Positions 1-30,196 of a DNA stretch of 64,000 nt are shown piece by piece. The notes under the pieces are model-generated. The model saw only the letters and a program-made list of their open reading frames with translations, did no database searches and was not told the DNA's origin. Position numbers and translations under genes: made by a program. Each line of letters opens with the position of its first letter. Position 1 is the first letter of the stretch. The stretch is taken from positions 702,975 to 766,974 of the forward strand of contig OY282365.1 in assembly GCA_958295685.2 (NCBI GenBank). Reading direction: 5' to 3'. Origin of the DNA: an uncultured Dehalococcoidia bacterium (GTDB taxonomy: Bacteria > Chloroflexota > Dehalococcoidia > Lucifugimonadales > CATQGZ01).

Positions 1-522
1 TCGCATCGCTCGAGTCGGCGATGGACTGGAGCAGAAGATCGTTGGCAATGGGCGCCAAGAAAAGGACGGCGCCAACGACGATAAGGGTCCTGGACGAAAG
101 CCTCCTCATGGCAACGAGGAAAAGTGAGGAGACGGCATAGACCATCAACACGTCCCCCTCCCTTATCATGTAGTGCAGACTGCCGATGATCAGCAGAAGG
201 GCATTGCGCCACAGATTCAACAGCACCGCGCGCCCGCCGCCCTCTCGATGAACAGCATCACCCCTGCGCCGAACAGCAGCGAGAAAAGCCCCATGAACTT
301 CTGGTCGATGAAAATCTCGCCGAAGACCCCGACCGTCCAGTCCAGCCACGTCTCCGATCCGCCCGCGCTGATGTTCAGATACGGGACAAACCCGAACTTG
401 ATGCTGACCGCGTTCATCAACAGGATGCCCAGCACCGCCACGCCGCGAATCAGGTCGAGGCTGGTTATCCTAGTAGACTCCGCTACCGGACCAGGCTTGG
501 ATTCTCTTTCTTGGGTGGACAT
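1..522 (-). pseudogene. DUF418/YeiB-like membrane protein, apparently frameshifted (runs off the window edge)
   Basis: The ORF at 217..522 (…DLIRGVAVLGILLMNAVS…GLFSLLFGAGVMLFIERAAG) looks like the N-terminus of YeiB/DUF418 proteins. After the TGA at 217-219, the family-like sequence (VLLNLWRNALLLIIGSLHYMIREGDVLMVYAVSSLFLVAMRRLS…) continues in a different frame to position 1. This implies a 1-nt indel in the G/C run near 225-240, or an assembly error. Confidence 0.45.
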
Positions 523-667
523 GGCCCCTCCAAGTCGTCAGGTCTACGGAGAGAGAGCGCCGATCGTCAATGCCGACCGCCACTCTCCCAGACAGGAAGA
601 ATATACGGAGACGACAGCCTGCCCATACTACTCCCCTGAACATCCGTCATCCTACCCCTCCATCCTC

Positions 668-1224
668 CCAATCCTGCCCAATCCTGAGAATCCTGATTCA
701 GACAATCAGACTCTCCGAGACCCGAAAGGACGAGTCCAGAACGGTTCTCCCCCTCTGGCTGACCACTGACCACTGACCACTGTCCTTGACGACGCCGAAC
801 CGCTGTGCTAGAGTATACCCATGACACAGCCAGCCAATCTCCACGACCAGCCCGCGCGACTCCCTGAAGCGCCTGTCGGACAAGTGTCGGATAAGTGTCG
901 CAAAGTGTCGTATTAGTGTCGTATTAGTGTCGGAAAACTGTCGGGTAAGTGTCGGATTCTGTCGGCCAAAATCGGCCCTCTCAGCTACGAAATGCCCGCA
1001 AATACGACACTTTCGCCGAAAATCACCCGGAGCCGCGGCCTTGGGCCGCCGGACGCAAGGCCCGGCCCGTTGCGGACCCCTGTCCCACAACTGCCCCGAA
1101 ATTGTTCCGGTTCTGTTCCACGTCTGTTCCACAAATGCCCCACATCTGTCCACAAATTCAAACCCTCAGCTACGAGACGGAACAAAATGGAACAGTTTGG
1201 GACAGTTTTCGGGAAAATCCACCC
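668..1224 (+). repeat. R1: promoter-bearing intergenic repeat element with two TGTC-array modules
   Basis: The element contains AATCCTG boxes (668-708), CTGACCA x3 (759-782) and a promoter (786-814). Array 1a has 9 units with a GTGTCG core (872-967), then CCCTCTCAGCTACGA (977-990), an inverted unit at 1001-1013 and TTTCGCCGAAAATC. Array 1b has TGTCCC/TGTTCC units (1078-1160), then CCCTCAGCTACGA (1163-1175), inverted units at 1179-1205 and TTTTCGGGAAAATC. Homologous elements lie at 10738, 16691, 29322 and 45577. Confidence 0.8.
786..814 (+). promoter_or_regulatory. sigma70-type promoter TTGACG-17 nt-TAGAGT inside R1
   Basis: TTGACG lies at 786-791, followed by a 17-nt spacer and TAGAGT at 809-814. 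An ATG sits 6 nt downstream at 821. Nearly the same promoter and spacer recur in R3, R4 and R5. Confidence 0.6.
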
Positions 1225-1338
1225 AGCGCGAGACCTGCAGCAACCGGCGCCCTGTGATAATCTACGAGCGCTTTGGAACGAGCGGGCACGACAGGCCCAC
1301 ACCCGGCCCGCCGATATTCCAACGTCCCCGGAGGTGTG

Positions 1339-2445
1339 ATGGAAAGGCCGATCTTCAAACCCATAGGCTCCCCCATTGAGGAACTCGACACCCCCGCCCT
1401 GATCGTCGACCTCGACAGGCTGGAACGCAACGTCCAGACGGTCCACTCCTTCTTCGAAGGCAGGGCCGCCGGCATCCGGCCTCGCGTGAGCGTGCACGGG
1501 TGCCCGGCGGTCGCGCATATGCAGCTGGCCGCGCCCGGCGCCGTCGGAGGAGTATCGGTCGCCACGCTCGGACAGGCCGAGGCCTTCAACGGCTCCGGCA
1601 TAGCTGACTTCTCGATCACCGCAAACGTCGTGACCGGCCAGAAGATCGCCAGGCTCTGCGCCCTAGCCCGCCGCGCCGCAGTCTCCGTGGCGGTGGACGA
1701 CGCCGCAAACGTCGCCGACCTCTCCGCGGCCGCGGCCGCCTCGGACGTCGAACTCAAGGTGCTCGTATCCATCGCCGTCAGGCCGGACCGCATGGGCGTT
1801 GACCCAGGACAGCCCGCCGTGGACCTCGCCAGGGCCATTACGGACTCCCCAGGACTCACCTTCGACGGCTTCAAGACCCACGAGGGCACGCTCGAAGTCC
1901 GGAGCGTGGCGCAGCTCGCCGAGGAGTCCCGCGCCTGGATCCGGCGCGTCCTGCAAGCGCGCGAGGCCGCCGAGGCCGCCGGAATCACCGTCAACACCGT
2001 CAGCGCCGGAGGAACATACAACTACGAGATCGCCGGAGCCGCCGACGGCGTGACCGAAGTCCCCGCAGGCTCATACGCCCTCATGGACGGCAGATACGCC
2101 GGCCAGCGGGAGGGCCTCGAACCCGCCGCCAGGGTGCTGACCACCGTCACCAGCTTCCCGGAAGACATCAAGATCATCACCGACGGCGGCAACAAGGCCA
2201 TCGGAATGGACCGCGGGAACCCGGTCGCAGACGAATTCCCAGAGGCCGCGATCGCGCTCAGCGCCGAGCACGGAAACATCGCCCTCGAAACACCCACCCG
2301 CCGCCAGGTCAACCTCGGCGACAAGCTCTGGTTCACACCCTGGGACATGGGAGTCACCGCCAACCTGTACGACTACCTGAACGCCGCGCGGAACGGCAGG
2401 CTCGAAGCGGTCTGGGACCTGCCCGCGCGCGGCCGATACCGTTGA
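1339..2445 (+). CDS. D-threonine aldolase / D-serine dehydratase-like PLP-fold protein (alanine racemase N-terminal fold), lacking the PLP lysine
   Basis: A GGAGG RBS lies just upstream of the ATG at 1339; the longest ORF starts at 1273. The N-terminus DTPALIVDLDRLERNV is typical of the D-TA/DSD1 family. The PLP-lysine motif position reads RPRVSVHG, with Ser in place of Lys. Confidence 0.7.
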   Translation: MERPIFKPIGSPIEELDTPALIVDLDRLERNVQTVHSFFEGRAAGIRPRVSVHGCPAVAHMQLAAPGAVGGVSVATLGQAEAFNGSGIADFSITANVVTGQKIARLCALARRAAVSVAVDDAANVADLSAAAAASDVELKVLVSIAVRPDRMGVDPGQPAVDLARAITDSPGLTFDGFKTHEGTLEVRSVAQLAEESRAWIRRVLQAREAAEAAGITVNTVSAGGTYNYEIAGAADGVTEVPAGSYALMDGRYAGQREGLEPAARVLTTVTSFPEDIKIITDGGNKAIGMDRGNPVADEFPEAAIALSAEHGNIALETPTRRQVNLGDKLWFTPWDMGVTANLYDYLNAARNGRLEAVWDLPARGRYR

Positions 2446-2486
2446 CCCAGACCGAAAGCCGCTGAGAACCAACGTGGAGAAAGCGA

Positions 2487-3587
2487 ATGGATAACTACCG
2501 CCCCGCCGTCGGAACCCCGATCTCGGACCTCGACACCCCCTGCCTGCTCGTCGACTTGGACGCCCTGGAAAACAACATGGCCGTGGTCGCCGAAACATAC
2601 CGCGGCACCGCCTGCAAGATGAGGCAGCACACGAAGAACATCAAGAGCCCCCGCATCGCCAACATGCAGATCCAAGCGGGCGGCACCCTCAACGGCGTGT
2701 GCACCGCCAAGCTGTCCGAAGCCGAGGTGATGGTCGAGGGCGGCATCACGGACGTCCTGATACCCAATCAGATCGTCACCAGAGAGAAGCTCGCCAGGCT
2801 GGCCGCCCTCGCCAGACAGGGCGACGTCAAAGTCACGGTCGACAACGCCGAAAACGTCGAGACGATCTCAGAAGTCGCAGCCGAGAACGGCGTCGAGATC
2901 GGCGTCCTGATCGAGGTCGATACCCAGATGCGCAGAGGCGGCGTGCGCAGCCCCGAGCACGGAGTCGTCCTCGCAAAGCTCGCCAGGGAACTGCCCGGCG
3001 TCAGGTTCAGGGGCGTCATGAGCCACCAGTCCGCAGGAGGACGGCCCGACGCCGACGAGAGGCTCAGAATCGCCGAGGAGCACATCGGAATCTGTCTGGA
3101 GGTCAAGGACGCCATAGAAGCCGAGGGCATCCCGGTGGAAATGGTGTCGAGCGGCGAGACCTTCTCATACGCCGCCGCCACGCTGATACCGGGCGTCACA
3201 GAGGTGGAGGGCGGAAGCTACGCCCTCATGGGCAACACCTACGGCTACCTCGACGAGTTCCAGATCGCCAACAAGGTGCTCTCCACCATCGTAAGCGTCC
3301 CACGCCCCGACGTCGGCATCGGCGACGTCGGAATGAAGGCCCTCTCGACGGCCGCCGTCACCAACGCCACGATCGAGGGCATACCGGGCGTGACCATCGA
3401 AGAGGTCCAGGACGAGCACATTGTCCTGCGCTCCGACGGAAGCGCGCCCCTGAAGGTCGGCCGGCAGTTCATGCTGCTGCCCGGCTACCAGGACCACCTC
3501 ATAAACCGCTTCGACCAGTACATCGCCGTTCGCGGCGGCGCCGTCGAACAGGTCTGGGACATACCCGGCCGGGGCTGCCACCACTGA
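2487..3587 (+). CDS. D-threonine aldolase / D-serine dehydratase-like PLP enzyme
   Basis: DTPCLLVDLDALENNM is followed by RQHTKNIKSP, which retains the Lys of the RPHxKTHK motif. It is a tandem paralogue of 1339..2445. Confidence 0.75.
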   Translation: MDNYRPAVGTPISDLDTPCLLVDLDALENNMAVVAETYRGTACKMRQHTKNIKSPRIANMQIQAGGTLNGVCTAKLSEAEVMVEGGITDVLIPNQIVTREKLARLAALARQGDVKVTVDNAENVETISEVAAENGVEIGVLIEVDTQMRRGGVRSPEHGVVLAKLARELPGVRFRGVMSHQSAGGRPDADERLRIAEEHIGICLEVKDAIEAEGIPVEMVSSGETFSYAAATLIPGVTEVEGGSYALMGNTYGYLDEFQIANKVLSTIVSVPRPDVGIGDVGMKALSTAAVTNATIEGIPGVTIEEVQDEHIVLRSDGSAPLKVGRQFMLLPGYQDHLINRFDQYIAVRGGAVEQVWDIPGRGCHH

Positions 3588-3733
3588 GACTGTGATAAAG
3601 AGCTCGCGCGGCTTCACTTCCAGCGCGCCTTCCGTCTCGCGTTGAAGGACGTTGAGAAGACCGGCAAGGCCGCCCCGCCCGTTCCGGCGCGCCCGCCCTC
3701 CGAACCGCTGCCGGAGAGAACGAGCCGCCCGGT

Positions 3734-4579
3734 CTAGGCGCTCCCCTGCTCGACTGCCAGCCTGAGCGGGTTGTCCTTTACCAGCAGGGTAAGCTCCGCG
3801 GCGCTCAGGCCCGCCTGGAGAAGGGAGGCCACGGCCATTCTCATCCCCTCGGCGGGAGGCGGATTCTCCGGCTGACCCAAACCCGTGGTCAGGACGCAGC
3901 GGTCAGCCCCCACCTCACGGATGGCGGCAGCCAGATCCGCAACCCCCATGGTCGTTCGGGACGGCATACAGGCCAGGAAGGCGTACTCGACGTACGCGCC
4001 CAGGGAAGCCACGCTCCTGAGCTGATCGAGCGTAGCGACTCCCGCAGGGGCAGTCGCCATCATGCGGGACACCCCCCGCTCGACCGCTCGGCTGAAGAGC
4101 TCGATCGTCTCCTCCGGAGACACCCAACCGGAAGCGAGCGTCATCCCCCTCTCGGCCACGATATCCACTATCTCCAGAACCTCGCGCCTGAGACCACCCT
4201 GCCGGCCCCAGAGACTGATGCCCGCCACCTGCCCCAGGCGGCTGCGGTAGAAGTCCGCCGAGAACGTGGGCATCCAGACGACCCTGGCGTCCAGGCCGGC
4301 GGCAACACGCACCGCGCTCGGATTCAGCCCGCCCACGCCCTCGTCCAGCACGACAGCGCCCCCGACCTCCAGACCGGGGTACATCCGGCTGAGAGCGTAG
4401 GCCAGAGGAGCCGTTGGATAGTCGTGAGACTTCAGGACGAAGCCCCTCATGCCCGCCTCGTAGGCAGCCCGGGCGGCGTCCATAGCGTCCATGCGCCGCT
4501 CCCGGAACGGATCGGGAGCGGCGTGGACGTGGAGATCGAAGGAGCCTCTGAGGACCTCCTCCACCTCGGAGTTTCTCAA
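3734..4579 (-). CDS. amidohydrolase-fold metal-dependent hydrolase-like protein (start uncertain)
   Basis: SFDLHVHAAPD…GFVLKSHDYPTA resembles an amidohydrolase/TIM-barrel metal site. The longest ORF reaches 4699. An in-frame TTG at 4579 with GGAG upstream leaves room for divergent promoters with the gene at 4724. Confidence 0.55.
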   Translation of the reverse strand: MRNSEVEEVLRGSFDLHVHAAPDPFRERRMDAMDAARAAYEAGMRGFVLKSHDYPTAPLAYALSRMYPGLEVGGAVVLDEGVGGLNPSAVRVAAGLDARVVWMPTFSADFYRSRLGQVAGISLWGRQGGLRREVLEIVDIVAERGMTLASGWVSPEETIELFSRAVERGVSRMMATAPAGVATLDQLRSVASLGAYVEYAFLACMPSRTTMGVADLAAAIREVGADRCVLTTGLGQPENPPPAEGMRMAVASLLQAGLSAAELTLLVKDNPLRLAVEQGSA

Positions 4580-4723
4580 GCTAGCAAGCTCCAGCGTTGC
4601 TGATACGCAGCAAGAGGCTAGCACACGGTCTGGGAAAGGAGCAATCGCACCTGCGCCCTCAACCGTGTACAATCCATGAGACGGACAGGCGCGGACCACA
4701 AGAGGTCAGCGGGGGAGAAATCC

Positions 4724-5338
4724 ATGTTGAAGAAGCTGGGTAAGATAAAGCAGATCAGGCAGGAAACTAAACAGGAGGCGCCGCCGGGCCAGTACGTAAC
4801 GGAGAAGTTCCCCGTCCTGACCTTCGGGCCGACACCGAAGATCGACCTGAAGACGTGGCGGTTCAGAGTGTTTGGCCTCGTGGAGGAGGAGGTCACCTAT
4901 AGCTGGGAGGAGTTTACCGGTCTCGGCAAGGTGACCCTGAACTCCGAGTTTCACTGTGTGACGCAGTGGAGCCGACTCGAAAACGCCTGGGAGGGCGTGC
5001 CGTTCGCAGACGTGATCGCGGCCGTCCGCCCAAAGCCGGAGGCCAGGTACGCCATGGTCCACTGCTACGGAGGCTACACGACCAACGTGGCCCTCGACGT
5101 CCTGCAGGATGATGACGTCCTGTTCGCCTACCGCCACGACGGAGCCCCGCTGCCGCCCGACCACGGCGGCCCGCTGCGCCTGGTAGTCCCGAAGCGCTAT
5201 GGCTGGAAGAGCGCGAAGTGGGCCAACGGCCTGGAATTCATGGCCGAGGACGCTCCCGGATTCTGGGAAGAGCGCGGCTATCACATGGAAGGCGACCCGT
5301 GGAAAGAGGAGAGGTTCCGGCCGGGCCTCGGTTGGTAG
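4724..5338 (+). CDS. sulfite oxidase-like / molybdopterin-dependent oxidoreductase
   Basis: A GGGGGAG RBS precedes the ATG at 4724. FPVLTFGPTPKIDLKTWRFRVFGLVEEE…EFHCVTQWSRL…GGPLRLVVPKRYGWKSAKW is typical of the small sulfite-oxidase-like family. Confidence 0.8.
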   Translation: MLKKLGKIKQIRQETKQEAPPGQYVTEKFPVLTFGPTPKIDLKTWRFRVFGLVEEEVTYSWEEFTGLGKVTLNSEFHCVTQWSRLENAWEGVPFADVIAAVRPKPEARYAMVHCYGGYTTNVALDVLQDDDVLFAYRHDGAPLPPDHGGPLRLVVPKRYGWKSAKWANGLEFMAEDAPGFWEERGYHMEGDPWKEERFRPGLGW

Positions 5339-5343
5339 CCCCT

Positions 5344-6636
5344 CTACCACAACCTCATCGAATCGGCGAAGAGCCGCCTGAGCTCCGGTTCGCCCACCGG
5401 ACGCGGGGACAGCTTCAACACCCGGTGCTGCGGCAGAGCGCCGGCCACCAGTCCGTCTAGGTCGTCATTCGAGTATCCGACCCCCTCGAGCCCGTTCGGC
5501 ATATCCAGCTGGCGCATCAGCGCGATGATCGCGTCGGCCAGCAGGTCGCCCGCGTCCTCCGGACCGGCGCCGGACACGTCCGCGCCCATCAGCCGCGCAG
5601 CGAGCAGGTGGCGCGCCGGATTCGTCGGCGCGGTGAACCGGAAGACGGCAGGGGCGTTGAGCACTACGGACATCCCGTGAGGGCACATCGACACCCCTGT
5701 GGGGTAGCCCTCCACAGTGAAGTCCAGCCCGTGCGCCATTCCCGAGACGGGATACGACATGCCGTGAGGCAGGTGACAGCCCGCGTTGCCGAAGCCGATT
5801 CCGGCGAAGGTTGCCGCTAGGAGCATCTCGCTCCGTGCCTCGGCATCTTCAGTATCGTTGGAGGCCCGCGTCAGATTCCCGGACACCATCTCGACGGCCC
5901 TCGTCGCCCAGACGTCGCTGATCGGGTTCGATCCCTGGTAGGCAGGCCGGAGCAGCGGGGTCTCCGGCGCTTCCCGGTCGCGGAACGGAAGGGCGGTGAA
6001 CGACTCGAGGGCATGACTCAGCACGTCGAACCCGCTGCTGGCCGCCACCATCCGAGGGAGCGTGCGCGTGTTGTCCGGGTCGACGACCCCGACATTCGGA
6101 CGCAGCATCCTGTGCGCGATCCCCGTCTTGGTCTTCATCTCCGTATAGTCGAAGATGGCCACGCCGGTGGTCTCGCTGCCGGTTCCTGCCGTCGTCGGAA
6201 CGGCTATCAGAGGCTTCAGAGGCCCCGGGACCGGCAGCCCGCGCCCTACAGGGGCGTTGACGTAGTCGAGGAAGTCGGCCGGGTGGGTGGCGTAGAGGTC
6301 GGCAGCCTTGGCCGTGTCCATGCTGGAGCCGCCCCCAACGGCGACGTACCCGTCGAACCCTCCGGCAATCGCGAAGGCTATCGCTTCCTTGAACGAGGCG
6401 TCCGTGGGCTCGACGCGCGCCTGGTCGAAGAGGACTGCGTCGATACCCTCGCCGCGCAGAGAGCCGATAGCGGTCGATACTGGCTCGCTGTCGGAGAGGT
6501 CCGGGTCGGTGACAACCATCACGCGGCTTGCGCCGAGTCGGCGAGCCTCGAAGCCCACTTCACGGGTCACGCCCGACCCGAACTTGATGCTCGACGTGTC
6601 GATAGAGAATGCGGTCTCGAGCCTGCGCTCGGTCAT
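5344..6636 (-). CDS. iron-containing alcohol dehydrogenase family (hydroxyacid-oxoacid transhydrogenase-like)
   Basis: GGGSSMDTAKA and the length (430 aa) fit the Fe-ADH family. Confidence 0.8.
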   Translation of the reverse strand: MTERRLETAFSIDTSSIKFGSGVTREVGFEARRLGASRVMVVTDPDLSDSEPVSTAIGSLRGEGIDAVLFDQARVEPTDASFKEAIAFAIAGGFDGYVAVGGGSSMDTAKAADLYATHPADFLDYVNAPVGRGLPVPGPLKPLIAVPTTAGTGSETTGVAIFDYTEMKTKTGIAHRMLRPNVGVVDPDNTRTLPRMVAASSGFDVLSHALESFTALPFRDREAPETPLLRPAYQGSNPISDVWATRAVEMVSGNLTRASNDTEDAEARSEMLLAATFAGIGFGNAGCHLPHGMSYPVSGMAHGLDFTVEGYPTGVSMCPHGMSVVLNAPAVFRFTAPTNPARHLLAARLMGADVSGAGPEDAGDLLADAIIALMRQLDMPNGLEGVGYSNDDLDGLVAGALPQHRVLKLSPRPVGEPELRRLFADSMRLW

Positions 6637-6643
6637 CGCCTCG

Positions 6644-7474
6644 CTATCTCGCCGCTGCCGCTGCCAGGGAGTCCCTGGCTTTCTGCGCTACTGCGGAATA
6701 CTCCTCCAGCACGGCGCTGCTGTTCAGCACCGTCGGCCTGGACGTGTCACGGTAGTCGCCGCGCAACTCGATGCGGCCCAGGAACTTCAGGCCCATCTCG
6801 CCGGCCAGGTCCTCGCCGGCCCCGGAGCCGAATACGCCGCCCGACAGGTTCTCGACGACGCCCAAAACGCTGAGATTCAGCTTGCGGATCATGTTGATAG
6901 AGCGCTTAGCGTCCACCTTGGCCAGCTCCTGGGGCGTGGTCACCACCACGAAGCCGTCGAGCTCCAGGCTCTGCATCACAGTCAGGGGTGAATCCGAAGT
7001 GCCCGGGGGCAGGTCTACGATAAGGTAGTCCAGCTCGCCCCAGTCGGTCGACTGGAGGAGCTGATTGATCGCGTTGTGAACCATTGGGCCGCGCCAGATG
7101 ATGGCCTCATCCTCATTCTCCTGGAAGAAGCCCATGGACATGACTTTCACTCCGAACTGCTCGGACGGGATTATCTTGCGGTCGTCCGTAGCAGTCGGGC
7201 GCCGGGCGACTTTCATGGCACGGACGACGTTGGGGCAGTCTATGTCCACGTCGAGTATCCCGACGCGCTCGCCCTCCTGCGCCAGCGTGACGGCGAGGTT
7301 CACCGCGACGGTGGTCTTGCCGACACCGCCCTTGCCGCTGTAGACGCCTATCTTATGGGTTATCCTGGACAGGGCTTCGGCAATGTTGCGCTTCTGCTCG
7401 AACTGGCGCTTCATCGCCTCGATCTTGGCGCGCGCCTGGGCGGCCTGCGGATTGCCGGGCTGCGGATGAGTCAT
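6644..7474 (-). CDS. apbC: Mrp/NBP35 (ApbC) family Fe-S cluster carrier ATPase
   Basis: The deviant Walker A motif GKGGVGKTTVAVNLA and the motif DLPPGTSD are present. Confidence 0.85.
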   Translation of the reverse strand: MTHPQPGNPQAAQARAKIEAMKRQFEQKRNIAEALSRITHKIGVYSGKGGVGKTTVAVNLAVTLAQEGERVGILDVDIDCPNVVRAMKVARRPTATDDRKIIPSEQFGVKVMSMGFFQENEDEAIIWRGPMVHNAINQLLQSTDWGELDYLIVDLPPGTSDSPLTVMQSLELDGFVVVTTPQELAKVDAKRSINMIRKLNLSVLGVVENLSGGVFGSGAGEDLAGEMGLKFLGRIELRGDYRDTSRPTVLNSSAVLEEYSAVAQKARDSLAAAAAR

Positions 7475-7544
7475 CTAAGCTCCTCGCCGGAGCCTTCCGG
7501 GGCTCTCAGGTCGTCAATCGCGGAGGGAGCGGCGGATACCCACC

Positions 7545-7862
7545 TCACGCCCCGTCCCGTGTCTCAGCCATCCTAATAGCTGCACAGCCACAAATCAACT
7601 TGGTTCCGGAGCCGAGCATCGGGTCGAGAACGACGCCGTCCGGGTCAGACAGTTGCCGGATCAGGAAGCTCGGCAGCTGTGGTGGAAACTTTGCCGGGAA
7701 GGGATGCCAAGCGTGAGGGCCGTAGCTGCCGTCCGTGCCGTGGAAGTCCAGATCGGCACGCAAAGCTGCCCGCAACGCATCGAGGCGGCTATTGCTGTTC
7801 ACGGGATTCTGCGGCCATCCGGTTCGATCCGCCTGATGTTCGATACCGACGGACGCCCGCAC
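7545..7862 (-). pseudogene. N-terminal remnant of a DNA methyltransferase
   Basis: HAWHPFPAKFPPQLPSFLIRQLSDPDGVVLDPMLGSGT matches the SAM-binding N-terminus (FxGxG motif I) of N6/N4 DNA methylases. The ORF then ends after about 20 more residues. Only about 70 nt remain before the next gene. Confidence 0.6.
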
Positions 7863-7869
7863 GAGATGC

Positions 7870-8184
7870 CTAGTCCAAGCCGAGCATCTTCTTGCCGTCC
7901 TCGGATATCAGGTCCGGCGTCCACGGAGGGTCGTAGACCATCTCGACGTTCACGTCATCCACCCCGTCCAACTCCGCGACCCGCCACTCCGCCTGCTGTG
8001 CAATGTAAGGCCCCATGCCACAGCCTGCAAAGGTTAGGGTCATCTTGATGTCCACGTCCCCGTCGTCGACCTGCAGGTCGTACACGAGGCCGAGGTCGAC
8101 GACGTTCACAGGTATCTCCGGGTCGTAGACGTCCTTCAGCGCCTCGACGACCTCTTCGCGTGTTAGGGTCGCAGTCTCAGTCAT
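7870..8184 (-). CDS. DUF59 / SufT-like Fe-S assembly protein
   Basis: VYDPEIPVNVVDLGLVY…MTLTFAGCGMG is the DUF59 (PaaD/SufT) signature. Confidence 0.8.
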   Translation of the reverse strand: MTETATLTREEVVEALKDVYDPEIPVNVVDLGLVYDLQVDDGDVDIKMTLTFAGCGMGPYIAQQAEWRVAELDGVDDVNVEMVYDPPWTPDLISEDGKKMLGLD

Positions 8185-8443
8185 GTGCGAAAGCCTCCGT
8201 TCTCAATCATCAGCGTCAAGTCTGTGCTTATCATTCTAGGGATGGACCGTCGGCGGGTCAATTCAGGTTGGAATCCTGCCAGCACACGATCAATGGCGTG
8301 TGAGCCGGCCTTCGGCTGGACCCGGCCGCGCTGGCGGTCAAGGCTGGGCTGTTACCTCCCGGGTAAACGATGAGATTGAGGCCGCCAGGGAGGTAGGCAG
8401 TTACGCGTACCCTGTTTCCTCAGCCCCCTGCCCTGCCCTCACC

Positions 8444-8546
8444 CTAGCTTGCGGCGACCTTGCGCAGATCGACGTATACGACATGTTGGGCTGGGTAGCA
8501 AGCCCACGCCTCGCTCTAGCTTGCGGCGACCTTGCGGAGGTCTACG
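8444..8546. repeat. direct duplication of the uvrB 3' end (72-nt period)
   Basis: The sequence ctagcttgcggcgaccttgcg occurs at 8444-8464 and again at 8516-8536. About 7 of the next 10 nt also match. The second copy includes the uvrB stop codon and its last codons. Confidence 0.7.
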
Positions 8547-10510
8547 ATCTGGTCTCGCAGGAGCGCGGCTTTCTCGAACTCCAGGCTGCGCGATGCCTCC
8601 TTCATCTGGGACTCCAGCTCCTTGATCAGGCGCGTGATCTCCTCTCTGGGAAGGTCGCCGCGTGTCAGGTATTCGGTGCGCGTTTCCGCGACGGTCTTGA
8701 CTCGTTCGGTGATGTCGTGCACGGTCTTGCGGATGCTCTGAGGCGTGATCCCATTTTCTTCGTTGTATGCGCTCTGGAGCGTCCGGCGGCGCTCAGTCTC
8801 GTCGATCGCCTGCCTCATCGACTCGGTGACGGTGTCCGCATACATGACCACTCGGCCGTCGACGTGCCTGGCCGCCCGTCCTATCGTCTGAATCAGCGAA
8901 GTCCGCGAGCGGAGATACCCTTCCTTGTCCGCGTCCAGGATGGCGACGAGGCTCACCTCGGGCAGGTCCAGCCCCTCTCTGAGGAGATTGATGCCGACCA
9001 CCACGTCGTAGACGCCGAGTCTCAGGTCCCGCAGTATCTCGCTGCGTTCCAGTGTGTCCACCTCCGCGTGGAGATGCTGAGTCTTCACGCCCATCTCCCG
9101 CAGATAGTCGGCGAGCTCCTCGGCCATGCGCTTCGTCAGCGTCGTCACCAGGCATCGCTCGCCACGTCCCACCCGCTCGGAGATCCGGTACAGCAGGTCG
9201 TCGATCTGGCCCTGCGTGGGCCTGACCTCCACGACTGGGTCCACCAGGCCGGTGGGCCTGATCACCTGCTCGACGACCTGGGCGCTGTGCCGGCTCTCGT
9301 AAGGGCCCGGCGTGGCCGAGACGTAGACGGCCTGGCCCACGCGCTCCTCGAACTCCTCGAAGTCGAGAGGGCGGTTGTCCAGCGCCGATGGAAGGCGGAA
9401 CCCGTAGTCCACGAGCACCTCCTTCCGGGACCTGTCGCTGAAGTACATCCCCTTGATTTGCGGCAGGGTCATGTGCGACTCGTCCACGAACAGCAGGTAG
9501 TCTTCAGGGAAGTAGTCGAGCAGCGTGTTTGGCGAGCTGCCCGCGGCACGGCCGCTAAGGTGGCGGGAGTAGTTCTCGACCCCGGCGCAGGCTCCCGCCT
9601 CACGCAGCATCTCCACGTCGTAGTTGGTGCGCGACTCGAGACGCTGGGCCTCCAGCAGCTTGCCCTCCCCATTCAGCAGCGCGAGCCGCTCGGCGAGCTC
9701 GGCCTGGATGGTCTCTATGGCGGCCAAGAGCTTGTCTTCGGACGTGACGAAGTGCTTGGCAGGGTATATCTCGACGTCGTCGCGGTCGCCCAGAACCTCC
9801 CCCGTCAGCGTATCCAGCAGCACGATCCGCTCGACCTCGTCGCCCCAGTACTCGATTCGCACGCCGATCTCCTCGTAGGCCGGCAGGATCTCCAGTGTGT
9901 CGCCGCGCACCCGGAACCTGCCGCGCGCCAGGTCGAAGTCGTTGCGCTCGTACTGCATGCTCACCAGCTCCCTCACGAGGCGGCTTCTGCTCCGGGTCTC
10001 TCCTTTGCGCACGTAGGACACGAAGCTCTGGTACTCCTCCGGGGAGCCGAGGCCAAAGATGCACGAGACCGACGCAACAATGAGAACGTCCCTGCGGGTG
10101 AGCAGCGACCTCGTCGCGGAGTGGCGGAGCTTGTCCAGCTCCTCGTTCACGTCGGCGTCCTTCTCTATGTACGTGTCCGACCGCGGCACGTAGGCTTCGG
10201 GCTGGTAGTAGTCGTAGTAGCTGACGAAGTACTCGACGGCGTTGTTCGGCAGGAACTCCTTGAACTCTGTGGCGAGCTGCGCGGCCAGAGTCTTGTTGTG
10301 GGCGATGACCAGCGTGGGGCGCTGTACCCGCTCCACGGCGCAGGCCATAGTGAAGGTCTTGCCGCTCCCCGTCACGCCCATCAGTGTCTGATGGCGCATG
10401 CCCCGCTCCAGGCCCTCTACAATCCTGTCGACCGCCTGCGGCTGGTCGCCGGTCGGCCGGAAGTCCGAGGTTATCTTGAATTTCCCGGGGAGCTGTGCCG
10501 CAACAACCAT
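8516..10510 (-). CDS. uvrB: excinuclease ABC subunit B
   Basis: The 664-aa product carries [10 protein letters not shown] and a C-terminal UVR domain ([12 protein letters not shown]). Confidence 0.95.
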
Positions 10511-10516
10511 GACGCG

Positions 10517-10522
10517 ATTCTA
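10517..10522 (-). promoter_or_regulatory. candidate -10 box (TAGAAT) 6 nt upstream of the uvrB ATG (leaderless arrangement)
   Basis: The minus strand reads TAGAAT-cgcgtc-ATG. There is no RBS. The -35 region is weak (TAGTCC at 17 nt). Confidence 0.4.
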
Positions 10523-10737
10523 TCCGTTATCCCGGTCCAGGACTAGACGCGATTCACGCGTGAGCCTGTACCAGTTTGGCAGGCGCCCACTCGTAGGAGC
10601 GACTCGTGAATTGTCCGCATCGCTCAGTCCTGCCAACCACCGAATCCTGGAACTCCCAATGAGGCTCGCCGCTCGGCAGTACCGACTCGAGGCGGGGGCG
10701 GCGGCGAGGTTTGGGCAGGGCCTCGCGCTGCCTGTGG

Positions 10738-11139
10738 GAGAGAATTTTTCGCGGGATCTGTAACGCCTGAAGGTCATTTGGGGGTCGTTTCGTAGCTGTG
10801 GAGGGCGGATTGGGGCGATTTTTGGGTTACAATTAGTGACACGTATGTGACAGTTTTGTGACAGATATGTGACACTTTTGTGACACTATGTGACAGATAT
10901 GTGACACTTTGTGACAGGTGTCCGGGAGGCCGAGCGGCGGGTGCGAGCCGGGCGTGGCTGCGTCGAGACAGCCGGGGCATTGGGGGCTGGCCTGGAGAGG
11001 GTCATCGTGTCTTCTCCTTGTGTCGAGGTGGAGTTGGCGGCCGGTCATGGCCATATCGACGAACATGATTATACAGGCGCAGAACAGGGGTGTCAAGGGT
11101 GGCGGGGGGACTGTCTGAATCAGGATTCTCAGGATTGGG
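10738..11139 (-). repeat. R2: promoter-bearing intergenic repeat element (TGTCAC array)
   Basis: In minus-strand orientation the element has AATCCTG boxes (11114-11139), a promoter (11068-11096) and 8 units of 10-11 nt with a TGTCAC core (10836-10918). These are followed by CACAGCTACGA (10789-10799) and GCGAAAAATTCTC (10738-10750). Confidence 0.75.
11068..11096 (-). promoter_or_regulatory. perfect consensus promoter TTGACA-17 nt-TATAAT inside R2
   Basis: In reverse complement, 11091-11096 reads TTGACA and 11068-11073 reads TATAAT, with a 17-nt spacer. It points toward uvrB. Confidence 0.6.
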
Positions 11140-11434
11140 CTACGGCGGGGATGGATTCCTGTCCTGTATCGGGTACGCGGCAGGCTTTCGCGGGAATCAG
11201 GAGGGAGCGAGGTGGAGGATTTGGGTGTCATGCGGCCCCTTTACAACCCCGGCACGTCTTGAAAATGCCGCCAATGGTCCGGGTGAGCATAACGAGTACA
11301 TCAAAGTTGACAAGTCGTTCAGGAATGTATTACGGTCTCCGGGCGCAGCCTGTGCAGGGTTGCGCCCGAGATAACCACGGGCCATACTCCGCGGAGTTGG
11401 TCAGGGGCGAAAGGGAACAGGAAGGAGGTTCGGA

Positions 11435-13090
11435 ATGTCTATACGGAACATGGTGTTGGTGGGCATGGCGGCCTTTGCGGCCGTAGCGGTGGCCTGCGGA
11501 GGCGGCACCACCGGAGAGGTGGTCGTGGAGAGAGAGGTGATCAGAGAGGTCGAGGTGCCGGTGGTGGTGGAGAAGGAGGTCGTGAGGGAGGTCACCAAGG
11601 AGGTGCCGGTCGAGAGGACCGTGGTTCAGACCGTGGTCAGAGAGGTCGCGCCTTCGCCTCTGGCGGACAACCAAGACATCAGGATAGCCCAGACCAACAA
11701 CCCGGTCGGCCTGCACGCCTCGGAGACGACGCTGCAGAGTGAGTCCGTCATGCAGCTCCTGTATGACCCTTACTTCGTATTCGACGACGAGAGCAACGAC
11801 TTCGTCGGCAAGCTGGCTACCGAGTGGTCATTCATCGACCCGCTCACGTTCGAGATGAAGATCACCGACCAGGCGTCCTTTCACAACGGCAAGCCCTTCA
11901 CCATCCCGTCGGCCATTGAGGACGTCGAGTGGATGAGGAACGAGAGCGGCGAGGATTCCCTGAAGAACAGGACGTTCGCCGGGTTCGAGACGTGGGCCGC
12001 CGTGGACGACTATACGATCCGGCTGGGACGCTCCGCGCCCAACAGCAACCCGCTGAGCGGCTTCACCAGGGGCCGGCACAAGTCCCACGAACCGGAGCAT
12101 CTGGCCAAGACCGGCTATGGCGGCTACAGCGACGACCCAGTCGGCACGGGGCCGATGCAGTACGTCGACTGGGAGCGGGAGAACTTCGTAAGAATGGAGA
12201 GGTTCCCCGACTACTGGGACTACGACACCACTATCGAGACGGTCAGCTTCCACCAGGTGCCCGAGACGGCGGTCCGCGTTGCGGGGCTCCAGACCGGCGA
12301 CTTCAACGTGGTCTACAGCCTTCCCGTCGACCTGATTCCCAGCCTGCTCAGGGACAACTTCAACATCTTCACGGGGAAGGTGCAGCAGACCGAGGTCATG
12401 TACCTCAACCCGCGCGCGACCGAGCCGCAGATGGACGACAAGAGGGTGCGCCAGGCCATGCAGTACGCGCTCGACCTGGAGGCCATCCACGGCACCATCC
12501 TGGGCGGGTACGCGCTGCCGGTCCCGGCCGGTCAGATGACCCCCGAGGGCGCCTTCGGATTCAATTCGGACGTCTCGGCGTACCCATACGATCCGGACAA
12601 GGCCATGAGTCTGCTGGAAGAAGCGGGCTACCCCGACGGCATCAGCGTGAGCGGCGTGTCCAGCATCGGACGCTACTTCCGCAACCAGGAGGTGCTCACC
12701 GCGATGATCGCGCAGTGGAAGGCGGTCGGGATCGACGTCGACATCGACTTCCGAACCTCGTCCCAGTGGCTCGCCGCGCTCCGAGCCGGAGAGTTGGGCG
12801 CGATCAGCGACATCGGGATGAACTGGTACGGCATATTCCCAATCACCATCTCCAGAGTCACCCACCCGGATTGGCAGGACCGCATGGCGCAGATCAGAAC
12901 CGAGACGGACAGGGCCCAGCTGGATGGGCTCTTGAAAGAGGCCGCGGAGTACATGCACGACCAGGCGTGGAGCATCTTCGCCTACCGCATCCCGCTGGTC
13001 TTCGGGCTGCACCCGGACATAGAGGACCTGACTTGGGGCCCGTCGTGGGAGCCCAGGCTGGAGGACGCGAGGGTGCTCGCAAGCCGGTAA
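11435..13090 (+). CDS. ABC transporter substrate-binding protein (peptide/nickel family 5)
   Basis: The 551-aa product has an N-terminal signal/lipobox-like sequence (AAVAVACGGG) and family-5 SBP-like sequence. A GGAAGGAGG RBS is present. Confidence 0.8.
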   Translation: MSIRNMVLVGMAAFAAVAVACGGGTTGEVVVEREVIREVEVPVVVEKEVVREVTKEVPVERTVVQTVVREVAPSPLADNQDIRIAQTNNPVGLHASETTLQSESVMQLLYDPYFVFDDESNDFVGKLATEWSFIDPLTFEMKITDQASFHNGKPFTIPSAIEDVEWMRNESGEDSLKNRTFAGFETWAAVDDYTIRLGRSAPNSNPLSGFTRGRHKSHEPEHLAKTGYGGYSDDPVGTGPMQYVDWERENFVRMERFPDYWDYDTTIETVSFHQVPETAVRVAGLQTGDFNVVYSLPVDLIPSLLRDNFNIFTGKVQQTEVMYLNPRATEPQMDDKRVRQAMQYALDLEAIHGTILGGYALPVPAGQMTPEGAFGFNSDVSAYPYDPDKAMSLLEEAGYPDGISVSGVSSIGRYFRNQEVLTAMIAQWKAVGIDVDIDFRTSSQWLAALRAGELGAISDIGMNWYGIFPITISRVTHPDWQDRMAQIRTETDRAQLDGLLKEAAEYMHDQAWSIFAYRIPLVFGLHPDIEDLTWGPSWEPRLEDARVLASR

Positions 13091-13138
13091 CCCGCACGCC
13101 CTAAGAGCCGACTCAGGGGCCAGTCGTCATACGAATGC

Positions 13139-13177
13139 AAAAGGGGGAGGCGCGCAGCCGAGTGTGCCTCCCCCTTT
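13139..13177 (+). terminator. intercistronic stem-loop between the SBP and permease genes
   Basis: AAAGGGGGAGGC, a 14-nt loop and GCCTCCCCCTTT form a stem of about 12 bp. It lies 50 nt after the SBP stop and 33 nt before the permease start. There is no clear U-tract. Confidence 0.35.
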
Positions 13178-13209
13178 GCTATGCCAGACCCGCCGCCTAG
13201 GGGAGCGAC

Positions 13210-14142
13210 TTGACCCGGTATATCGTACGCAGAAGCCTCCAGGCAGTCGTAGTCATCTACCTGGTAGTCACCCTGGTCTTCTTCCTCATGAGACTGGGGG
13301 AGGGTGATCCGGCCCAGCACCTGGTGGACTGGGAGCAGGACTACGAGGCCGCGCTGGAGCAGTACCGCGACCTGTACGTGGCGATGGGCCTCGCCAGACC
13401 CGTCGTCGTACAGTACGGCATCCACCTGTACCGGACCTTCACCGGCCAGTTCGGCGACTCCACCATCTTCAACGTCCCGGCATGGCAGTTGCTGGGCGAG
13501 CGGATAGTGAAGACGTCTCAGATGGGAGGGGCCGCGCTCCTGCTCTCCGTCGGTATCGGCATACCGCTGGGGATCATATCCGCTCTCAGGCGCGGCTCCG
13601 TGGTCGACACGGGGGCCACGACCTTCTCGGTCTTGGGGCTGACCATACCGAACTTCTGGCAGGCTCTGCTGATGATACTGATCTTCGGCGTCTGGCTCCG
13701 GTGGCTGCCCATCTATGGGGCCGACACCTGGAAGCACATGATCATGCCGTCCATCGTGGCGTCATCCGCGCTGATGGCCACGATGTCCCGGTTCACCCGG
13801 TCCGGGATGCTGGAGGTGCTGAGGCAGGACTACATCAGGACGGCGGCGTCCAAGGGCCTGGGGCCGTCGGTCATCGTGGTCAGACACGCCATGCGGAACG
13901 GGCTGATCTCCGTAATCACCCTGCTGGGCGCGGCTGTCCCGCTGTTCTGGTCCGGCGTCTTCTTCGTCGAGTACGTGTTCGCCTGGCCGGGGGTCGGGCT
14001 GCTGTTCCTCAACTCGATAAACCAGCAGGATCTGCCCGTCGTGTTCATGCTCCTGCTGCTGATATCCGTGGCCACCGTGTTCGGCTACCTGCTGGTGGAC
14101 ATCATCTACGCGCTGGTCGATCCGAGGATACGGTTCAGATGA
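13210..14142 (+). CDS. ABC transporter permease (DppB/OppB-like)
   Basis: The 310-aa polytopic protein starts at a TTG with a GGGGAG RBS. Confidence 0.85.
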   Translation: MTRYIVRRSLQAVVVIYLVVTLVFFLMRLGEGDPAQHLVDWEQDYEAALEQYRDLYVAMGLARPVVVQYGIHLYRTFTGQFGDSTIFNVPAWQLLGERIVKTSQMGGAALLLSVGIGIPLGIISALRRGSVVDTGATTFSVLGLTIPNFWQALLMILIFGVWLRWLPIYGADTWKHMIMPSIVASSALMATMSRFTRSGMLEVLRQDYIRTAASKGLGPSVIVVRHAMRNGLISVITLLGAAVPLFWSGVFFVEYVFAWPGVGLLFLNSINQQDLPVVFMLLLLISVATVFGYLLVDIIYALVDPRIRFR

Positions 14143-15143
14143 ACACGCCGCCGAGCGGACAGGCCGGCGCCGTCAGGCTCTCTCAGATGGCTTCCCTGCC
14201 GCGCTGGATGCGCTGGGTCAGCCCGCGCAGGCTGTGGGTCAACCGGCTGGGCATAGTCGGGGGCGGCATCTTCCTGCTGTTCATCTTCTGCGGCATCTTC
14301 GCGCCGTGGGTGGCAGGGGCCGACCCGAATGAGGTTAGCCTGCAGGACCGCTTCAAGTATCCGACCTTCTGCAACGCGCTGCCCTGGGTGTCCACCTATG
14401 AGCCTGGGGAGGGTGAGATAGTGGGGGCGGTCTTCTGTCATCCGGACCCGGAGAATAGGAAGGGGCCTCTGGGAACCGACAAGCTCGGCAGGGACGTGCT
14501 GAGCCGGCTCATCCACGGGGCGCGCATAGCGATGATAGTCGCCCTGTCGGCGTCCGCCCTCAGCGGGGTGATCGGTATATCGATAGGCATAGCGACCGCC
14601 TACTACGGCGGCTTCATCGACGACGTGATAATGCGCATAGCCGACACCTGGGACGCGGTGCCTCCCCTCGTCATCATCCTGGCGCTGCTGGCGTTCATTC
14701 CCGGAGGCGTGGTTACGCTGATCCTGCTGATCGGCATCGTGGGGGGGGGGTGGATCGGCACGGTGCGCATCGTCCGCGGCGAGTCGCTCAGCCTGCGTGG
14801 GCGGGACTACGTGCTGGCGGCGCAGGCCATGGGGGCGAGCGACAGGCGAATAATGTTCCGCCACATCCTGCCGAATACGATGGCGCCCATCATCGTCGGG
14901 AAGACGATGGGCATCGGGGGGGTCATTCTGGCAGAGTCGGGTTTGAGCTTCCTGGGGCTGGGGGTTCCGCCAGACGTGCCGTCGTGGGGGCGCATGTTGA
15001 CGGAGGCCCAGGAGTTCATCCTGGTGGCCTGGTGGCCGTCGATATTCCCCGGGCTGGTCATAACCCTGGTCGTGCTGTCGACGGTCTTCATGGGAGACTG
15101 GCTGCGGGACACCCTGGATCCGCGGCTGAGGGGCTCCAGGTAG
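14139..15143 (+). CDS. ABC transporter permease (DppC/OppC-like)
   Basis: The ATG at 14139 overlaps the upstream stop (ATGA). The sequence reads MNTPPSGQ…GTDKLGRDVLSRLIHG. The longer ORF starting at 13482 is an out-of-frame overlap with the previous gene. Confidence 0.85.
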   Translation: MNTPPSGQAGAVRLSQMASLPRWMRWVSPRRLWVNRLGIVGGGIFLLFIFCGIFAPWVAGADPNEVSLQDRFKYPTFCNALPWVSTYEPGEGEIVGAVFCHPDPENRKGPLGTDKLGRDVLSRLIHGARIAMIVALSASALSGVIGISIGIATAYYGGFIDDVIMRIADTWDAVPPLVIILALLAFIPGGVVTLILLIGIVGGGWIGTVRIVRGESLSLRGRDYVLAAQAMGASDRRIMFRHILPNTMAPIIVGKTMGIGGVILAESGLSFLGLGVPPDVPSWGRMLTEAQEFILVAWWPSIFPGLVITLVVLSTVFMGDWLRDTLDPRLRGSR

Positions 15144-15199
15144 CCGGGCTACAGAACGGCACGACGTATTGAAGCGCCGGTTCCCTGATGTTGGGAACT

Positions 15200-15276
15200 T
15201 GGCGACCCCGACCGGATTCGAACCGGCGATCTCTGCCTTGACAGGGCAGTATGTTAAACCGCTACACCACGGGGCC
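15200..15276 (-). tRNA. tRNA-Asp (GTC)
   Basis: The reverse complement is GGCCCCGTGGTGTAGCGGTTTAACATACTGCCCTGTCAAGGCAGAGATCGCCGGTTCGAATCCGGTCGGGGTCGCCA. It folds as a cloverleaf with anticodon loop CTGTCAA, a TTCGAAT T-loop and an encoded CCA. Confidence 0.9.
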
Positions 15277-15352
15277 GCGAGGGGGAGAACTTTGTGTCCA
15301 GGGTTCCAGCCGGAGGGCGCGCCGCCGTCACGCCGAGCGGCGCGGTCGGCGC

Positions 15353-15589
15353 CTAGATGGACTGAAGAGCGGCATCCAGTTTCGGCGGGCTGTAGCCCAC
15401 GATCCGCTCATTCCCGATCACCGTAACCGGCGTCGTGCGGTAGCCCATGCCGACCAGGCGCTTGACCGCCTCCGGGTCCATAGACACGTTGTACTCGGTG
15501 AAGGAGACACCCTTTCGTGAAAGATACACTTTCACCATGTGGCAGGGGCCTCAGCCAGTGGACGTATAGACTTGTATCTCGTTTTCCAT
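15353..15589 (-). CDS. glutaredoxin/NrdH (YruB)-like selenoprotein, active site U-G-P-C
   Basis: The ATG at 15589 has a GGAG RBS 7 nt upstream. The product reads MENEIQVYTSTG-[TGA 15551-15553]-GPCHMVKVYLSRKGVSFTEYNV…TTPVTVIGNERIVGYSPPKLDAAL. The in-frame TGA falls exactly at the first Cys of the CxxC motif of small glutaredoxin-like proteins (…VYT.xWCPPCxxxKxxL…). A hairpin lies 15 nt downstream. Confidence 0.75.
15517..15535 (-). promoter_or_regulatory. candidate SECIS-like hairpin downstream of the Grx-like UGA
   Basis: GUGAAAG-UGUAU-CUUUCAC is a perfect 7-bp stem starting 15 nt 3' of the UGA. Confidence 0.35.
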
Positions 15590-15678
15590 AACACACTCCA
15601 TGTCTCATTATAGACGGCGGGGGCTTCCGGGCGATAGGGCCGGGGCCGCCCCGCCGGGTCGTCTTGATCAGGCCGGGC

Positions 15679-16113: not shown

Positions 16114-16118
16114 GCCGC

Positions 16119-16591: not shown

Positions 16592-16609
16592 TTGCCGGAC
16601 TCATGGTCA

Positions 16610-16639: not shown

Positions 16640-16690
16640 GCTGGCACGCGGGCGAACCTGTCCCTCCTAGTCGACTGGGGCTCGGCGGCA

Positions 16691-30193: not shown

Positions 30194-30196
30194 CGT

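Follow-up and report, generated by a model that had tools for sequence, protein, structure and literature searches.

What kind of element sets a near-consensus promoter, a tandem array of 11-nucleotide (nt) units built on TGTC, a fixed core and an inverted copy of the unit upstream of one gene after another? The question is raised by five intergenic loci, R1 to R5, in a 64,000-nt stretch of an uncultured Dehalococcoidia bacterium (contig OY282365.1, positions 702,975 to 766,974; hereafter the window). The original prediction, made from the letters of the window, took the loci for copies of one element and offered two functions for the array: a one-face DNA platform of the iteron or centromere type, or a protein-sponge transcript. 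The analysis confirms that the loci form one repeat family, and comparison with relatives leads away from both functions. The reading we favour, and to which we give roughly even chances, is that of a transcribed, modular, fast-turnover promoter-leader repeat, dispersed, intergenic and lineage-specific within the Dehalococcoidia (Chloroflexota), its function being predicted only.

The five loci contain six modules, and their common parts occur far above chance in the 64-kb window. On the common strand the order is AATCC(TG) boxes, a -35/-10 promoter, an ATG (absent from R2), a C-rich leader, a tandem array, AAAATCG…CCCTCAGCTACGA, one to three inverted units and an end resembling TTTCG-N-CGAAAATC; every part that had been predicted is found where it was placed. 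The pattern TGTC-N7-TGTC-N7-TGTC has 15 matches against 0.00 expected, all within the five loci, and the core CAGCTACGA has seven against 0.38 expected, six in the loci and a seventh, at 24024, that is a chance match in a coding region. The box AATCCTGATTCAGACA has four exact matches against 0.23 expected. Tandem Repeats Finder detects period 11 at all loci: 874-957 (7.7 copies) in R1, 10836-10916 (7.6) in R2, 16754-16854 (9.5) in R3, 29413-29465 (4.8) in R4 and 45693-45753 (5.7) in R5. The unit itself varies among the loci of this one genome, as TGTCGGA, TGTCACA, TGTCGCA, TGTCCCA and TGTCAGA. Two subtypes are apparent, with one inverted unit in R1a, R3 and R5 and three in R1b and R4, and the 3' modules of R1b and R4 are 87% identical. 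R2 is the outlier, in its promoter, in its leader and in having no hairpin (fold z = +0.27). The TTTCG-N-CGAAAATC end proposed for all copies is intact in R1a and R4 but degenerate in R1b, R3, R5 and R2.

R1 (668-1224, + strand) is a double module behind a single promoter, as had been proposed, and double modules recur outside the window in loci L066 and L058. It opens with the boxes CCAATCCTG, CCAATCCTG and GAATCCTGATTCAGACA (668-704), followed by an 81-bp stretch (705-785) that is absent from the other copies and carries CTGACCA 3.4 times at 759-782. The promoter (786-814) reads TTGACG, a 17-nt spacer and TAGAGT, with a TG 5' of the -10 box; the predicted transcript start, at ATG 821-823, and the C-rich non-coding leader occupy 821-872. 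The R1a array (873-966) holds about eight direct units of period 11 (TGTCGGA, TGTCGCA, TGTCGTA and others) and is followed by the core CAGCTACGA at 982-990 and the inverted unit AAATACGACACTTT, which overlaps TTTCGCCGAAAATC, at 1000-1024 (fold z = -2.73). R1b, without a promoter of its own, has direct units at 1080-1159 (TGTCCCA, TGTTCCA and others), the core CAGCTACGA at 1167-1175, and three inverted units (CGGAACA, TGGAACA, TGGGACA) ending in TTTTCGGGAAAATC at 1178-1219 (fold z = -4.08). The next three loci lie on the - strand. The divergent copy R2 (10738-11139) has boxes at 11112-11139, the promoter TTGACA-17-TATAAT at 11096-11068, a TGTCACA array at 10836-10917 and a core at 10790-10798, with no inverted copy. 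In R3 (16691-16987) the boxes lie at 16943-16987, the promoter at 16941-16913, the ATG at 16906-16904, the array at 16754-16854 (TGTCGCA nine times, the last unit TGTCGG), the core at 16728-16736 and the inverted unit at 16704-16718. R4 (29322-29565) has CCAATCC boxes at 29534-29565, its promoter at 29531-29503, ATG at 29496-29494, direct units at 29389-29465, core at 29368-29376, three inverted units at 29335-29366 and TTTTCGGCGAAAAC at 29325-29338 (fold z = -4.28). R5 (45576-45830, + strand) has its box at 45576-45593, promoter at 45598-45626, ATG at 45633-45635, array at 45693-45753 (TGTCAGA, the last unit TGTCGGA), core at 45769-45777 with a partial duplicate at 45780-45787, and inverted unit at 45800-45815 (fold z = -2.24).

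The boxes have a wider distribution of their own. Together with its heptamers, AATCCTG/AATCTT, the AATCCTGATTCAGACA box makes up one arm of a palindrome some 100-120 bp long (TTGTCTGAATCAGGATT … AATCCTGATTCAGACAA), a repeat present in many unrelated IMG/VR contigs of 43-57% GC (L003, L016, L022, L034, L035, L029 and a 130-kb contig, L007/L018/L031/L056). The window carries the half-arm only, always immediately 5' of the promoter (668-704, 11112-11139, 16943-16987, 45576-45593). R2 alone is bracketed by inverted boxes, with a degenerate inverted GAATCCTG box at 10640-10656, about 80 nt past its 3' end and 76% complementary. IS481 ends in L095, considered as a source of the AATCCTG box, proved unrelated.

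The family extends beyond the window and stays close to it in phylogeny. The core pattern CYCNCAGCTACGARAYGNNNNNAAAT, scanned over 185,579 genomes, one per species, occurs at 14 loci, 13 of which are in Dehalococcoidia metagenome-assembled genomes (MAGs), so that, as judged by this pattern, the family appears almost restricted to that class. The core is absent from the viral contigs covered by the pattern scan, and BLAST of the 244-nt R4 copy returned nothing relevant from plasmids and only a chance 21-nt match from phages. In metagenomes the pattern retrieves mostly unrelated satellite-like or low-GC sequences, among which only L073/L076 look real. The view that the element belongs to no described family holds up: R1-R5 have no match in Rfam 15 at the gathering score or at E<=5, the only matches in the window being two tRNAs and one chance match on the opposite strand of tRNA-Val. 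Literature searches with the core and box sequences gave unrelated primers only, and those on Dehalococcoidia repeats and non-coding RNA gave nothing relevant. The copies in relatives have a promoter of the form TTG…, a spacer with CG(A/C)AC and TG-n-TAnnnT, with ATG or GTG 5-7 nt downstream; they keep the invariant core (CYCNCAGCTACGAAAYG; C(Y)CNCAGCTACGAAA(T/C)G), and then about three TGNNNCA units at 11-nt spacing followed by TTTCGGCGAAAATCC. Most of them have only 0-2 upstream direct units, and long arrays occur in the window genome, L060 and one further MAG (L058, L062, L067). As the rest of the element is kept where the upstream units are few, the long arrays are best seen as lineage-specific expansions and not as its defining feature.

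Conservation of the promoter follows function. A promoter scan recovers the predicted promoters at all five loci: TTGACG-17-TAGAGT in R1 and R5, TTGACA-17-TAGAGT in R3, TTGACA-17-TACACT in R4 and a perfect TTGACA-17-TATAAT in R2. The conserved spacer sequence is common to R1, R3, R4 and R5, and in the same four the -10 box is followed, 6 nt on, by the ATG. A set of 17 copies, drawn from different species, keeps the TTG of the -35 box, the TAnnnT of the -10 box and mostly the upstream TG, with free variation at the three central -10 positions (GAG, CGC, GAA, TTC, CCA and others). Fixation of the T, the A and the last T alongside such freedom points to selection for promoter function and not to recent copying, and on this pattern we conclude that the element promoter is under functional constraint. 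Downstream of the element no consistent hairpin or T-run terminator is seen (mean z = -0.34).

The transcript that such a promoter would produce does not encode a protein. The reading frame of the core relative to the conserved ATG is 0, 1 and 2 in 8, 3 and 4 copies, respectively, substitutions in pairwise alignments are spread evenly over codon positions (for instance 13/18/23 and 26/27/28), and indels measure 1-2 nt. The conservation thus lies at the nucleotide level, as had been argued from the window; the element sequence is non-coding, and a leaderless small open reading frame (ORF) is ruled out by the same three observations.

The second conserved property is self-complementarity. A repeat finder pairs AAAGTGTCGTATT with AATACGACACTTT in R1 (13/13), AAGTGTCAGAT with ATCTGACACTT in R5 (11/11) and AACTGTTCCA with TGGAACAGTT in R4 (10/10), and finds arms of 11/12 in R3 and none in R2. 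Over the family, 13 of the 32 strict TG…CA units of the 3' arm have their reverse complement in their own 5' arm, against 4.0±2.2 when upstream regions are exchanged between modules, and two of 10,000 such permutations reach 13. Ranked by duplex energy, a module's own upstream region is among the top three (rank 0-2) for 11 of 20 modules. Folding is better than in shuffles for five of the six modules in the window (z = -2.7, -4.1, -1.8, -4.3 and -2.2), the exception being R2. From a structure-blind alignment of six MAG copies poor in array units, RNAalifold derives a 16-pair helix of CAUUUC-GNNNC-AUUUCG with CGAAAUG-NNN-C-AAAUG and compensatory changes in NNN; pairing covers 85% of its cells, a figure that drops to 32-41% on sliding the partner, and its covariation score is reached by 8 of 500 shuffles. 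The claim that the inverted copy tracks the local unit in four of five loci is thus upheld as complementarity above chance, but not in full: in R3 the inverted copy TCCGACA is perfect to the loop-proximal TGTCGG and has one mismatch to the nine amplified TGTCGCA units, and about 8 of 21 modules (R2, L064, L069, L073 and others) have no convincing complementarity. Tracking of unit and inverted unit is not a universal constraint. R3 also speaks against the suggested templating of the array by the inverted copy, since the amplified unit is TGTCGCA and not TGTCGGA, the reverse complement of that copy; simple slippage of a periodic arm fits better. Pairing in RNA or in a cruciform was a further suggestion, of which the pairing stands, but G.U mismatches show no excess over A.C in the arms (7 versus 12); the data speak for a selected or maintained inverted repeat, as compatible with DNA pairing as with RNA pairing. 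Core and units were also compared with the tRNAs of the window and gave no convincing duplex; the units lack complementarity to UUGACAU, the anticodon loop of tRNA-Val.

Placement of the copies obeys a strict rule. The prediction that each copy points into the adjacent gene extends to relatives: all 20 orientable copies with a callable neighbour, in about 18 independent contexts, do so, and none lies between convergent genes. In the window the neighbours are a D-serine-dehydratase-like gene, uvrB, tRNA-Val, an Fe-S_biosyn gene and a small ORF with ftsZ, and in the MAGs a methyltransferase, orotidine monophosphate decarboxylase, glycine-cleavage T protein, DUF3500 and others; these genes are functionally unrelated and show no common theme of the kind that would suggest a riboswitch. 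Several neighbours, in the window and in relatives, have near-consensus promoters of their own between the element and the gene. The tRNA-Val gene (16515-16591) has a TG-extended TTGACC-18-TAAACT at 16610-16639 (- strand), between R3 and the tRNA; the Fe-S_biosyn (HesB-like) gene has a separate promoter at 29157-29186 (- strand), downstream of R4; a promoter-like TTGACA-17-TATTAT lies at 46060-46088 (+ strand), between R5 and the small ORF with ftsZ; and FeS_assembly_P has its own promoter in L091, L096 and L094.

The copies come and go between close relatives. A copy upstream of uvrB is present in the window (R2) and in L091 and absent from L093, L094, L095, L096 and L092; L093 has no copy although its uvrB and that of L091 share 94% nucleotide identity. 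In L091 the uvrB copy has another unit than R2, TGTCCAG, and another core, CAGCTATGA, with a matching inverted TTGGACA. This copy sits in an insertion of about 600 bp (L091, 9322-9929) that ends in 17-bp inverted repeats (CAGGGCAATCGCATTTT), has duplicated 10 bp of its target (TCTAACAGCC) and also holds the C-terminal remnant of an ISAs1-like transposase. Tried as a possible edge of the element in general, this terminal repeat turned up neither in the window nor at any other locus. In L093, L094 and L096 the site without the insertion is a hairpin resembling repetitive extragenic palindromic (REP) sequences, CCCTCTCCCTTGACGGGAGAGGG, followed by TTGGGGTGAGGGTGA. At the R5 locus synteny with orthologues is not conserved, and L097 and L098 have no copies. 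Density is equally uneven, with five loci in 64 kb of the window, two copies in 22 kb of L091 and none in about 131 kb of other relatives. Compared with L091-L098, shared gene order breaks at R2 (on the upstream side of uvrB, about 10.5-11.4 kb) and at R5 (about 45.5-46.1 kb), where the inositol-phosphate synthase gene is not beside ftsZ in L097 and L098; the elements, or their close surroundings, may thus be sites of rearrangement.

A strong promoter of its own, a foldable non-coding transcript and gain and loss between close relatives together favour a portable promoter-leader cassette over a protein-binding iteron array. Architecture, restriction to Dehalococcoidia in the scan, non-coding nature, the orientation rule, turnover and complementarity above chance are supported here directly. 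Each copy would be a sigma-70-type transcription unit, with one to four AATCC(TG) boxes and a near-consensus -35/extended -10 promoter, starting at the A of CATG, 6-7 nt past the -10 box, and continuing into the C-rich leader. The 3' half would fold back, direct units of TG(T/C)NNCA with a 4-nt spacer (the 11-nt period) pairing with one to three reverse-complement units and leaving the invariant CYCNCAGCUACGA(A/G)A unpaired at a loop or junction, up to the TTTCG-N-CGAAAATC end. The 4-10 units of the 5' arm in this genome may be the product of amplification, for which slippage during replication, acting on a helix arm that was periodic beforehand, is the simplest mechanism. With no recognisable terminator, the cassette would fire a structured untranslated transcript toward the neighbouring gene, which might thereby acquire a second source of transcription, upstream and perhaps under separate regulation. 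An invariant loop points to a partner acting in trans, and is itself the probable handle for it.

Several points weigh against this reading. Besides the modules that lack convincing complementarity and the missing G.U excess, no factor was identified that keeps CAGCTACGAAATG invariant. The window copies have neither terminal inverted repeats nor target duplications, and no transposase, HUH, Y1, REP-associated tyrosine transposase (RAYT) or reverse transcriptase gene is found among the 40 window proteins scanned. The start at CATG, transcription itself and read-through are predictions, and we infer the slippage origin of the arrays and an effect on the neighbouring gene in the same way. The neighbours already have good promoters, so the benefit of an extra one is unclear.

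The same promoter and fold might instead define a family of stand-alone trans-acting small RNAs (sRNAs), each copy a gene of about 200-350 nt whose unpaired CYCNCAGCUACGAAAUG, pyrimidine-rich and anti-Shine-Dalgarno-like, would act as seed or protein-binding loop, co-orientation then reflecting selection against antisense or head-on transcription. Such genes would account for a promoter conserved at its functional positions, for co-varying arms around an invariant loop and for unrelated neighbours that own their promoters, but they should not lack a terminator or consistent 3' hairpin, and co-orientation of 20 of 20 copies with none in convergent spacers exceeds the expectation for free-standing sRNA genes. 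Patchy presence in close relatives argues against a core regulator, no target or partner was identified, and Rfam offers no family; we regard this alternative as unlikely, though by no means negligible. Were the repeat instead purely selfish, a promoter and hairpin without host role, the orientation rule would be the trace of purifying selection against harmful insertions. Lineage-specific expansion with fast gain and loss, the copy within an insertion derived from an insertion sequence (IS) and the synteny breaks at R2 and R5 suit this view. The promoter positions and the 13-nt core are nevertheless invariant across species-level divergence, and convergent spacers, in which BOX, RUP, IS and similar parasitic repeats are enriched (PMC3049150), hold none of the 20 copies; a selfish repeat is therefore improbable. 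Still less credit is due to the array as the functional part, whether as a one-face DNA platform (iteron, centromere-like or Pho-box-type direct repeats) or as a protein-sponge sRNA. Its TGTC cores do stand in strict 11-nt phase, and Pho boxes are CTGTCAT direct repeats of 11-bp period, which the R2 units (CTGTCACAAAACTGTCACATA) resemble. Most family members nonetheless have the array missing or reduced to 0-2 units with everything else kept, and the unit differs between copies in one genome; an iteron or centromere needs an array with a constant motif, and a sponge fares no better when arrays are dispensable in relatives, so that neither of the functions first proposed is sustained. The arrays lie about 50-170 nt past the predicted start, inside the predicted transcript and 50-230 nt 5' of the next promoter, and not at the -35 position that a Pho-box-like role implies, and an inverted copy that tracks the unit is unexpected for a protein site. 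Likenesses to the DnaA box, the parS half-site, MraZ and CIRCE sites were dropped, as they fit only some unit variants.

If the pairing takes place in DNA, the element could be a hairpin site for a strand-specific nuclease or recombinase, the loop CAGCTACGA being its cleavage or recognition sequence and the 11-bp units the iterons of the same protein; the whole would then be a non-autonomous mobile module comparable to the pMV158-type double-strand origin or to REP/RAYT systems. The pMV158 origin carries its nick, TACTACG/AC, in the IR-I hairpin loop, and its bind locus consists of 11-bp direct repeats, three in tandem (PMC1851628). In the present element CTACGA occupies the loop and has 11-bp direct repeats next to it, the REP tetranucleotide GTAG is read on the opposite strand, presence varies between close relatives, and DNA pairing is as compatible with the arms as RNA pairing. 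The likeness to the pMV158 nick, however, spans only 6 nt and does not stem from a search, no Rep, HUH or RAYT gene occurs among the 40 window proteins scanned or the few genes examined beside relatives' copies, and viral contigs, plasmids and phages did not yield the core. Promoter conservation at exactly the functional positions would go unexplained, and unit variation within one genome is awkward for a single iteron-binding protein. We think such a site distinctly unlikely. More speculative than any of these, and a long shot, is the possibility that the copies are chromosomal, non-autonomous relatives of rolling-circle origins, whose hairpin offers a CAGCTACG/A nick site to a HUH nuclease encoded elsewhere, with the 11-bp units as its iterons and the promoter driving strand opening for extrusion; if true, this would be a new transcription-assisted, trans-mobilised element that also rewires neighbouring genes.

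Some features of the window stand apart from the repeat. Intrinsic-terminator-like sites are rarer than in shuffles (4 versus 9.4 at 1-20000 and 6 versus 10.3 at 28500-47000), and many window promoters have an ATG 6-10 nt past the -10 box (for example 45541-45513 with ATG at 45503), suggesting that leaderless starts and terminator-poor transcription may be typical of the organism. Downstream of R1 lie two tandem paralogous genes (1339-2442 and 2487-3584, + strand), each with Ala_racemase_N and D-ser_dehydrat domains. A tRNA-Gln called by ARAGORN at 6181-6255 (- strand) lies within the Fe-ADH ORF (5347-6636), is missed by the Rfam tRNA model and is probably a false positive. At 28694-28801 (- strand) the HesB/IscA-like protein has an unusual Gly/Cys-rich tail, GGGCGCGGGGGGGCGGGGGGGGCGSGGGGGCACGGH, from a GCC-rich triplet repeat found by Tandem Repeats Finder. 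The lower-GC stretch 30713-39268, with an N6_N4 DNA methylase of 1087 amino acids, a ResIII + RE_endonuc protein of 1047 amino acids and two ORFs without Pfam match, is probably a type III-like restriction-modification island.

Dehalococcoidia are abundant and mostly uncultured, and their regulatory RNAs and small mobile DNA are almost unstudied. A promoter joined to an invariant 13-nt loop and a helix of amplifiable 11-nt units would be a new example of a promoter and leader spreading between genes, and would also illustrate how periodic helices become tandem arrays. The invariant core offers a search handle for the trans-acting partner by phylogenetic profiling, and the arrays, being variable in length, could serve as natural markers by which to follow strains in metagenomes. 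Should the elements alter the expression of uvrB, ftsZ or a tRNA, they would let regulation change quickly in a streamlined genome.

Among known systems the closest in architecture is BOX of Streptococcus pneumoniae, composed of boxA, a variable number of boxB and boxC, predicted to form a stem-loop on transcription, able to affect the expression of neighbours and variable among strains (PMC3049150). The match, which is one of architecture only, lies in conserved end modules around variable tandem inner modules (here 0-10 units of 11 nt), in the capacity to fold when transcribed and in variation between strains. The BOX stem comes from boxA and boxC, whereas here it comes from the tandem units, which are much shorter than the BOX tandem module of about 45 nt. 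BOX has no dedicated consensus promoter, while the Dehalococcoidia element has a promoter and an invariant loop, and BOX is over-represented between convergent genes, where the present copies, all upstream of and co-oriented with a gene, never occur. With the pMV158 origin the element shares CTACGA in a hairpin loop and tandem 11-bp direct repeats nearby. The pMV158 nick nonamer TACTACGAC is absent, the loop reading C(Y)CNCAGCTACGA(A/G)A with only CTACGA in common; the repeats, of which origins of this type have two or three in tandem as a bind locus, here lie upstream, themselves form the stem and number 0 to 10; and the copies are many and chromosomal, include a conserved promoter and have no Rep gene nearby. 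REP, BIME and REPIN sequences with RAYT are likewise short dispersed intergenic hairpin repeats with lineage-specific expansion and GTAG on one strand. In REP elements the conserved GTAG stands at the foot of the palindrome, whereas here it is read on the reverse strand in the loop, of an element 5-10 times longer, promoter-bearing, oriented to the downstream gene and with no RAYT seen. The sponge RNAs CsrB/RsmZ, and ToxI, resemble it in placing tandem short repeats behind a promoter in a non-coding transcript. CsrB/RsmZ need a constant GGA motif and ToxI repeats measure about 34-36 nt beside a toxin gene, in contrast to the variable unit, dispensable arrays and housekeeping downstream genes found here.

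Closest in behaviour are the putative mobile promoters of Matus-Garcia, Nijveen and van Passel, defined by stretches of 50 nt or more that are 80% or more identical and precede genes of one genome that are not paralogues (PMC3575422). R1 and R3, 83% identical over 88 columns, and R3 and R5, 81% over 97, pass these limits; the elements sit at a greater distance from the start codon than the interval of -150 to -50 at which such promoters are placed. Unlike miniature inverted-repeat transposable elements (MITEs), which are flanked by terminal inverted repeats and target-site duplications, the window copies have inverted repeats that are internal, formed by unit and inverted unit, and only R2 has a weak flanking pair, that of its 76% complementary boxes. 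What distinguishes the Dehalococcoidia element from mobile promoters and Correia-type MITEs is the fixed RNA-like module downstream—core, periodic arms and 3' palindrome—that accompanies the promoter.

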